Both the position numbers and the translations under genes were made by a program. Shown in pieces: positions 8,779 through 8,956 of a stretch of 64,000 nucleotides of DNA. The DNA lies in the NCBI GenBank assembly GCA_964016885.1, contig OZ024742.1, forward strand, positions 112,034,001-112,098,000, given 5' to 3'. Position 1 is the first letter of the stretch; the number at the start of each line of letters is the position of its first letter. This DNA is from Eledone cirrhosa (taxonomy: Eukaryota). Under the pieces are notes generated by a model, which was not told the origin of the DNA, did no database searches, and saw only the letters and a program-made list of their open reading frames with translations.

Positions 8779-8956
8779 AATATGGTTTTATAAATATAGT
8801 TTCCCTTTGTTAATATCGTATATCTACTCCAAATACTTGTCGAGTGCTTTATATCAGTTATAAAAATATTTGCTTGTTGTATCCCAACAATTTAAATAGA
8901 ACTTTTGCATATACTCTGCTCCTGTATTGTTGAACGCTTTACATTATAACTGGAAA

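Follow-up and report, generated by a model that had tools for sequence, protein, structure and literature searches.

The window, by which we mean the whole 64-kb stretch of DNA analysed, is a nest of elements within (TA)n tracts of a 3.0 Gb host genome. By their sequence features, the elements inserted in (TA)n are of two kinds, Penelope-like elements (PLEs) of the Hydra clade and tandem units without coding capacity. Two fixed 3' ends (site 1 and site 2) were identified in each of families C, D, E and F and in a 591-bp unit, and the interval between the two sites is ~65-140 nt. The following features were identified.

8070..12887, + strand: family C Hydra-clade PLE (from the sequence plus intact relatives)
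8070-8908, + strand: family C upstream pLTR
8957-11171, + strand: family C disrupted RT plus GIY-YIG ORF
12067-12887, + strand: family C downstream pLTR, within a long 3' UTR
8715..8777, + strand: predicted minimal type I hammerhead (motif scan; core CTGATGA at 8722, GAAA at 8759)
12701 and 35946: further family C hammerhead cores (motif scan)
8819..8845, + strand: family C site 1 (patch TATAT 8819-8823, CTC 8827-8829, GAG 8842-8844)
8909..8935, + strand: family C site 2 (patch ATATA 8909-8913, GCTC 8918-8921)
12881..12914, + strand: site-2 terminus of family C, continuing into the (TA)n target that also holds the 591-bp insertion
12915..13739: 591-bp non-coding unit in two divergent arms, minus arm to site 1 (12915) and plus arm to site 2 (13739)
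13148-13153: internal patch of the 591-bp unit
15760..18493, - strand: family E Hydra-type PLE, site-2 end at 15760, inverted arm with site-1 end at 18493
15894-15897: family E internal site-1 patch
32920..36132, + strand: 5'-truncated family C copy with site-2 end
36764..39890, - strand: family G PLE (at other loci the end of this family lies on ATAT, and GCTC..GAGC comes next)
44731..47687: family D PLE, inverted arm to site 2 and plus arm to near site 1 (47687); CA-type site-2 junction TTTACACA at about 44731; ORF fragment 45425-47350; hammerhead cores at 44883 (-) and 47605 (+)
48256..49872, - strand: 2.6 tandem copies of a 624-bp non-coding unit, with the 3' end on a 7-nt patch (48256) and a 5' truncation at the other end (49872)
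50163..50354, + strand: family D pLTR with site-1 end (ACTAT); hammerhead core at 50273
50431..55615: family F PLE in divergent arms, minus arm to site 1 (50431) and plus arm to site 2 (55615); internal site-1 patch 55503-55505; hammerhead cores at 50583 (-) and 55350 (+)

Coding families and non-coding units

Family C copies have a single open ORF of 743-746 aa that includes YRDD and a C-terminal VVY..YVG region. RT and C-terminal GIY-YIG endonuclease (EN) are thus encoded in one ORF, as is characteristic of the Hydra clade. The family C protein has RWR and DKT (DKG changed to DKT), and those of families D, E and F have RWK and DKT. By eye, we identified in family C the CxCX5C linker (CNCRNKSNC), CxxC (CDLCIEE) and CxH (CRH), and no CCHH motif; the family E counterparts are CNCHLPETC, CRLCDLE and CNH. 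Also present are the other features of the clade, namely (TA)n insertion, pLTR, inverted arm and one-sided tail. The assignment to the Hydra clade is motif-based, and was made because the family C motif set matches the clade definition in section 11 of Craig et al. (2021). Neptune and Nematis were also considered and were dropped after the motif check. Protein identity among the five coding families is 35-47%. A Pfam search with 11 proteins recognised none of the Hydra RT pieces; its matches were limited to the RT of an unrelated LINE-type element at 28397 and, in family D, a GIY-YIG hit too weak to pass the cut-off.

Other PLE-like RT family fragments occur at 385-1326, 5519-6142 and 25858-27622 (DKS-type, Poseidon-like by eye), and a LINE-type RT fragment (28397-29512; Pfam RVT_1), whose end is a short (TAGA)n ahead of (TA)n, is a possible control outside the PLEs for junction overlap. 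An abundant SINE-like repeat with the end GAAACAATT (63138-63322 and 63464-63566) occupies AT-rich sites of various kinds, not only (TA)n.

The 591-bp unit was seen in arrays of 6 + 8 units, and the 624-bp unit occurs as dimers and trimers. Both are non-coding and are likely mobilised by PLEs. A young 591-bp insertion (G000:C10:28660178-28668637; L066-L079) consists of 6 minus and 8 plus near-identical units, arranged back to back. Such an array is expected if both strands were copied by a rolling circle, although the unit yielded no hammerhead core. When family C was tested for rolling-circle copying, the two pLTRs within one insertion were mutually closest among the tested copies in five of seven elements, which is suggestive only. 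Five tandem family D site-2 junctions with a 183-bp period (G000:C2:169702711-169703473; L273-L277) are a candidate minimal non-autonomous unit.

A motif scan identified hammerhead cores with stem II upstream of ends in families C, D and F. The same scan found no core in families E and G in the window and none in the 591-bp unit, and one chance core in a single copy of the 624-bp unit. Rfam gave no hammerhead match, in these two units or elsewhere, and returned only microsatellite-driven miRNA and similar noise. In the MFE fold of the predicted hammerhead at 8715..8777, stem II forms and the full fold does not. A divergent pair of cores at 60734 (-) and 60859 (+), in the TA tract at 60127-61918, belongs to a further family.

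Fixed 3' ends, target overlap and the CTC..GAG motif

The sequence-only reading of this window had reported four junctions at which an element 3' end falls on a TA patch. All four are present in the sequence, with coordinates within 1 nt. Family C reads CTTTTGCATATA-CTCTG internally at 8902-8918, versus CTTTTGC(AT)n at the terminal positions 12881 and 36126. The 591-bp unit has its internal junction sequence at 13145 and the terminal one at 13736, and the 624-bp unit has a junction at 48867 and a 3' end on the minus strand at 48256. The end at 50355 is ACTAT, and the minus-strand copy at 44731-44994 extends ~65 nt beyond it. That reading overlooked that 8909 is the second of two family C ends (the first having its patch at 8819-8823) and that like patterns occur at 15897/18494 and 55503/50431.

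TA-patch 3' ends are a real, genome-wide feature. Among the best 30 of 584 candidate family C 3' ends, 29 enter a TA-rich repeat at CTTTTGC and none (0/30) continues into CTCTG and the ORF, and TTTT[G/A]CATATA[C/T]TCTG is present in all of the 30 best-matching family C ORF-start copies. These two sets show the patch to be a fixed feature of the family. Ends were surveyed more broadly across the window and 350 loci by a scan of 1,783 TA-tract boundaries, and targeted searches were added; duplicates, element-internal microsatellites and rows with a single unrelated continuation were excluded. The ends are precise: 37 of 46 family C site-1 ends are identical, as are 34 of 37 at family E site 2 (E2). 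Pattern-matched divergent two-arm insertions pair a site-1 arm with a site-2 arm in 49/49 cases (C 19, D 13, E 9, F 4, 591 4), a count in which one arm was often preselected, many loci having been retrieved by site-2 queries. At two places (G000:C1:3570918-3570985 and G000:C1:239524242-239524289) identical pairs of 3' ends face each other across a short (TA)n; these are either palindromic duplications or assembly artefacts.

The sequence-only reading had proposed that microhomology at the junctions be compared with chance, and had named scatter of the ends independent of TA patches as the contrary outcome. Scatter of this kind is not what we found, and overlap exceeds chance. At 17 recurrent ends, element and target overlap by 1-7 nt (mean 3.94 nt), with at least 1 nt at 17/17 and at least 2 nt at 16. 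For 31,652 position-phase pairs within the same elements the mean is 0.99, and the observed sum was reached in 0 of 1,000,000 draws; an AT-rich null has a mean of 1.57 nt (p 1.2e-5). These p-values overstate independence because the sites were hand-picked (X2, Y and H being left out of the overlap test) and are of common descent. The mean overlap at 84 one-off ends, many of which are 5' truncations, is 1.76. Patches of 5-7 nt are found at C1, C2, F2, 591 and 624, and when the continuation was compared with TATATA at 16 hand-checked sites, on average 4.4 of its first 6 nt agreed (the rows for C2, F2, V, W and Z being taken from the earlier site listings).

Some ends count against pairing. Exact overlap is just 2 nt at E2 and 1 nt at the long end of E1, both very precise. 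At the latter, 47 of 53 distinct places continue beyond TTTTATAC with C and then TATA, and a perfect 4-nt E1 patch two bases downstream is used in 1/53. In favour of pairing, the match to the target at the E1 long end is 5/6 in the register of the second patch, not that of the first, in a pattern that leaves out the short E1 end.

A CTC with a GAG partner lies 4-12 nt past the first T of the target-like stretch at 10 of 11 first sites, in families whose proteins are only 35-47% identical (3.9% in the null, scored as CTC at +5 to +12 plus a partner GAG). Site H has no such motif. Nine later sites with at least two internal copies, inspected by eye, comprise four with CTC..GAG, two with TTC..GAA, one with CTC only and two with neither. 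At family C site 2 the partner is GAAC in the window copy and GAGC in the other 29/30 copies. The flanking pairs vary by family, being G-C or A-U outside and U-A, G-C or C-G inside. Where the junction is unambiguous (E2 and the E1 long end), the start of copying lies 6 nt ahead of CTC. The start position appears to follow a downstream CTC..GAG motif that is absent from the sequence-only reading. The predicted stems are for the most part weak. Six were folded and compared with shuffles: only D1 clearly outdoes them (z -3.05), 624 has z -1.67, and C1, C2, E2 and 591 do no better than shuffles (z -0.36 to +1.16), the C2 stem being absent from its MFE fold. Inspection by eye of the consensuses in File S7 of Craig et al. 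(2021, PMC8557442) shows CTC..GAG after a TA patch in four of six Hydra families. The motif follows the hammerhead in Hydra-2_Amil, Hydra-2_Ajap and Hydra-1_Crog; the Hydra-1_Ajap consensus has the 3' end ATATATT and a start with two such stems, and in Hydra-1_Amil and Hydra-1_Obim the motif is not clear by eye. We also considered the patch as a TATA box, and rejected this on inspection, since TACAGG, TATTAA and TATTTT do not qualify as TATA boxes and each family has two sites.

Register, junction repeats and priming

In 591-bp arrays in which both units are visible, the A/G variant in the patch is the same in the terminal and the preceding unit (7/7 arrays). Thus, the patch was copied from the element, and copying would start at or after the variant base, leaving the G variant with 2-3 nt of overlap. 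The G variant is still abundant and still (TA)n-flanked, and arrays of 6 + 8 units were formed even from a patch broken to ATGTAT. Tracking of the variant therefore speaks against a scar of the target alone, and against any requirement for extended pairing. On the plus strand of L064 (units ending near 466, 1057 and 1648) the far unit has the A variant and the next two have G, which points to a multimeric template of mixed composition or to a change at a later time.

Family D site 2 (D2) is informative due to its variable ends. The internal sequence is CTTCA-TTTATACAG in ~9/10 of 100 internal copies listed (101 in all), and there are about 1,522 terminal places on the forward strand, with the end forms TTTATA, TATA, CATA, TTCACAC and TTTACAC. 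At loci not chosen by junction type, A is in the register of the patch in 28/28 ends. C occurs within the first 8 nt at 14 of 28 D2 ends versus 0/22 D1 ends (Fisher p 5.8e-5), and G at two D2 ends; a separate listing, by our own count, has C at 14 of 30 distinct places. For nine of the 14 C-bearing ends all departures from the RNA are U to C, and so compatible with rU:dG; the other five have one mismatch. Counted against a reading by pairing, U to C is also the commonest mutation, and slippage by 2 nt after insertion would likewise keep the register. In an age control, nearest identity for CA-type versus other D2 ends is 0.964 versus 0.977 by the median and 0.946 versus 0.914 by the mean, so that the two measures disagree. 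Compound (TA)n(CA)n targets are disfavoured as the source of the CA junctions: among 14 insertions fetched, all eight C-bearing ones whose opposite arm is visible have plain (TA)n there.

Short repeats were identified at several junctions, including (TAAC)x3 in L236, TGTG in L210 and L219, TCTC in L209 and repeated TTCA in L126. Beyond D2, extra-repeat junctions are single cases in families E and F. The extra units may also have arisen after insertion. In family D, TA-like bases are frequent at the 5' junctions too (L172, L177, L179, L186 and L190), and the start in L186 is exactly the site-2 patch.

Fixed ends, overlap with the target, register, the motif and back-to-back arms of site 1 plus site 2 are seen in the DNA itself. 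As we read these sequences, a cut (TA)n strand likely pairs with the UA patch in the element RNA and primes reverse transcription. It is fairly probable that the stem positions the RT while a UA patch of ~6 nt aligns the nicked primer. The GIY-YIG endonuclease, rather than pairing, would pick and nick (TA)n, giving a primer that ends in A. RT-EN would bind the weak CUC..GAG stem 3' of the hammerhead, and copying of the RNA so held would begin ~6-9 nt 5' of CUC. The last 1-6 nt of the primer would pair imperfectly with the alignment region, one mismatch and rU:dG wobbles being tolerated. The nascent strand may sometimes slip back and re-pair, adding CA, TTCA, TAAC, TG or TC units as telomerase does. 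At D2, a cycle of priming at U, copying CA, slipping back by 2 or 4 nt and re-pairing could explain the classes of end, and the same logic may also yield the repeats of L236, L210, L219, L209 and L126. The two cut strands would use different sites, and the stretch between the sites would form the PLE 'tail'.

A bolder version of this proposal, which we regard as possible but doubtful, is a duplicated, telomerase-like module present clade-wide (UA alignment region plus CUC..GAG stem), with an RT dimer priming both strands and true repeat addition. The enzyme would copy 2-4 nt, slip back and re-pair before elongation. If so, a retrotransposon would have retained the catalytic cycle of telomerase and would seed compound microsatellites at its insertion sites.

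The protein might instead read the stem and UA(U) as a ruler, so that a start at fixed distance is joined to a nick of fixed phase with no pairing of the primer. Precise ends at 1-2 nt overlap fit such a ruler, as do flanks nearly all of which can be read as beginning with T, and PAc provides a precedent (PMC11167929). This explanation is unlikely, as it predicts neither the register at variable ends (28/28), nor the excess of CA over TG, limited to the site whose RNA holds ACA, nor the duplication at junctions of the last 2-4 nt of the element.

It is quite improbable that the patch is a remnant of (TA)n captured when the tandem unit formed, and that the variants arose by later slippage and T-to-C change. 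The ends do adjoin unstable (TA)n, slippage by 2 preserves register, and the single fixed patch at C2, taken alone, is compatible with a scar. Such an origin is at odds with two sites per family in five families, the copying of the variant base to the terminus (7/7), an E1 long end in the register opposite to that of the short end, and the lack of CA at the D1 ends of the same family D (0/22).

Resolution by the endonuclease, in which EN would cut TA steps in both an element DNA intermediate and the target and the ends would be joined, was proposed for the tail by Craig et al. (2021, PMC8557442). Most main ends have a TA step, and PLE ENs cut AT-rich DNA in their own pLTR (PMC11167929). We find this highly improbable, given that a TA step is missing from the junction at the E1 long end (C then TTT) and at the short D2 end (CA then TTT), that TA steps elsewhere in the elements do not recur as ends, and that PAc tail ends match the RT start sites in vitro (PMC11167929).

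The sequence-only reading had gone further, proposing that pairing with the UA patch, besides priming in a manner reminiscent of telomerase, directs insertions to (TA)n. Short pairing of primer and RNA at initiation, and the analogy, are retained by inference, the latter agreeing with a templated patch, kept register, wobble-compatible junctions and short repeats at the junction; the targeting role is not. The 5-7 nt patches at C1, C2, F2, 591 and 624 would suit targeting by pairing, which is extremely unlikely in view of the 1-3 nt overlaps at other major ends (E2 having 34/37 identical ends with 2 nt, and the E1 long end 1 nt), the abundance of the (TA)n-flanked 591 G variant, the arrays of 6 + 8 units formed by the ATGTAT-broken patch, and (TA)n beside 24 of 28 patchless 5' ends. 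The latter are the 5'-truncated far ends of 624-bp arrays, which scatter over the unit, and ten that were listed overlap the target by 0-2 nt. Since these far ends adjoin (TA)n, the tracts were already in place and no patch guided their choice. EN and its linker account for target choice better than pairing does; Craig et al. (2021, PMC8557442) likewise attribute TA targeting to the linker.

Comparison with known systems

The elements resemble the Hydra clade as described by Craig et al. (2021, PMC8557442) in RW[K/R], DKT, CxCX5C, CxxC and CxH without CCHH, and in (TA)n targets, inverted arms and a tail at one end only; the clade's hammerhead has a predicted counterpart in families C, D and F. 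They differ from that description in that the tail is ~65-140 nt here versus 30-40 bp, and family C units are ~4 kb versus 'generally <3 kb'; the tail is ascribed there to EN resolution, and the sections compared here describe no alignment patch or CTC..GAG motif (PMC8557442). Our literature search, which covered papers outside subscription, found no target-complementary internal start sites or CTC..GAG motif for EN-bearing PLEs.

PAc, the Anolis Poseidon PLE, is the sole PLE tested in vitro, and its homology-independent initiation was called unique to PLEs (Frangieh et al., 2024, PMC11167929). As in the elements studied here, PAc has two internal start sites with the interval between them as the tail, and RNA 3' of the start site is required, with a hammerhead nearby (a predicted one here); both strands are cut and extended, which matches our two-arm pattern (PMC11167929). 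Unlike the elements in this genome, PAc starts in an AC-rich loop without homology to the cut DNA (PMC11167929). A start not complementary to the cut DNA is not what the genomic junctions here indicate, as overlap exceeds the null at 17 sites. The junctions suggest that in a sister clade the primer is aligned with a short patch inside the element, the position of which is set by a small RNA motif, and that repeats are occasionally added.

The surprise of this is limited, because priming by short homology is well known in LINEs and EN-minus PLEs. Pairing of a few bases of the primer is established for L1 (snap-velcro, PMC3649969) and has been proposed for RTE, CR1 and L2 (PMC6007223). Like LINEs, our elements have a few terminal matches, tolerance of mismatches and a 3' overlap of one to several bases (PMC3649969, PMC6007223). 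In LINEs the pairing is at the RNA 3' end (poly(A) or terminal repeat), whereas here the patch is internal, occurs twice and lies beside a conserved motif. The 591- and 624-bp units resemble animal non-LTR retrozymes in being non-coding head-to-tail arrays (PMC7229834; bioRxiv 10.64898/2026.07.22.740005), and differ from them in lacking a recognisable hammerhead core and in having a start signal in common with PLEs instead.

The EN-minus PLEs Athena and Coprina attach to telomeric overhangs via complementary stretches beside hammerheads (PMC8557442), and so resemble the alignment proposed here, in which a primer would pair with a short complementary stretch inside the element near a predicted hammerhead. 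In contrast to both these elements and telomerase, an endonuclease would provide the primer here, at internal (TA)n, and the positioning motif is 3' of the alignment region. Telomerase, the sister RT lineage to PLEs, realigns its primer with repeat addition; repeat addition in our elements would be occasional and would end in processive copying of the element. The proposed priming separates target choice (EN) from priming (RNA), supplies defined RNA elements to mutate, and would account for the optional tail and the back-to-back arms. What we describe would work like the primer alignment of LINEs and telomerase but is a member of the Hydra PLEs, and may offer a tractable model for a step common to PLE RTs and telomerase.
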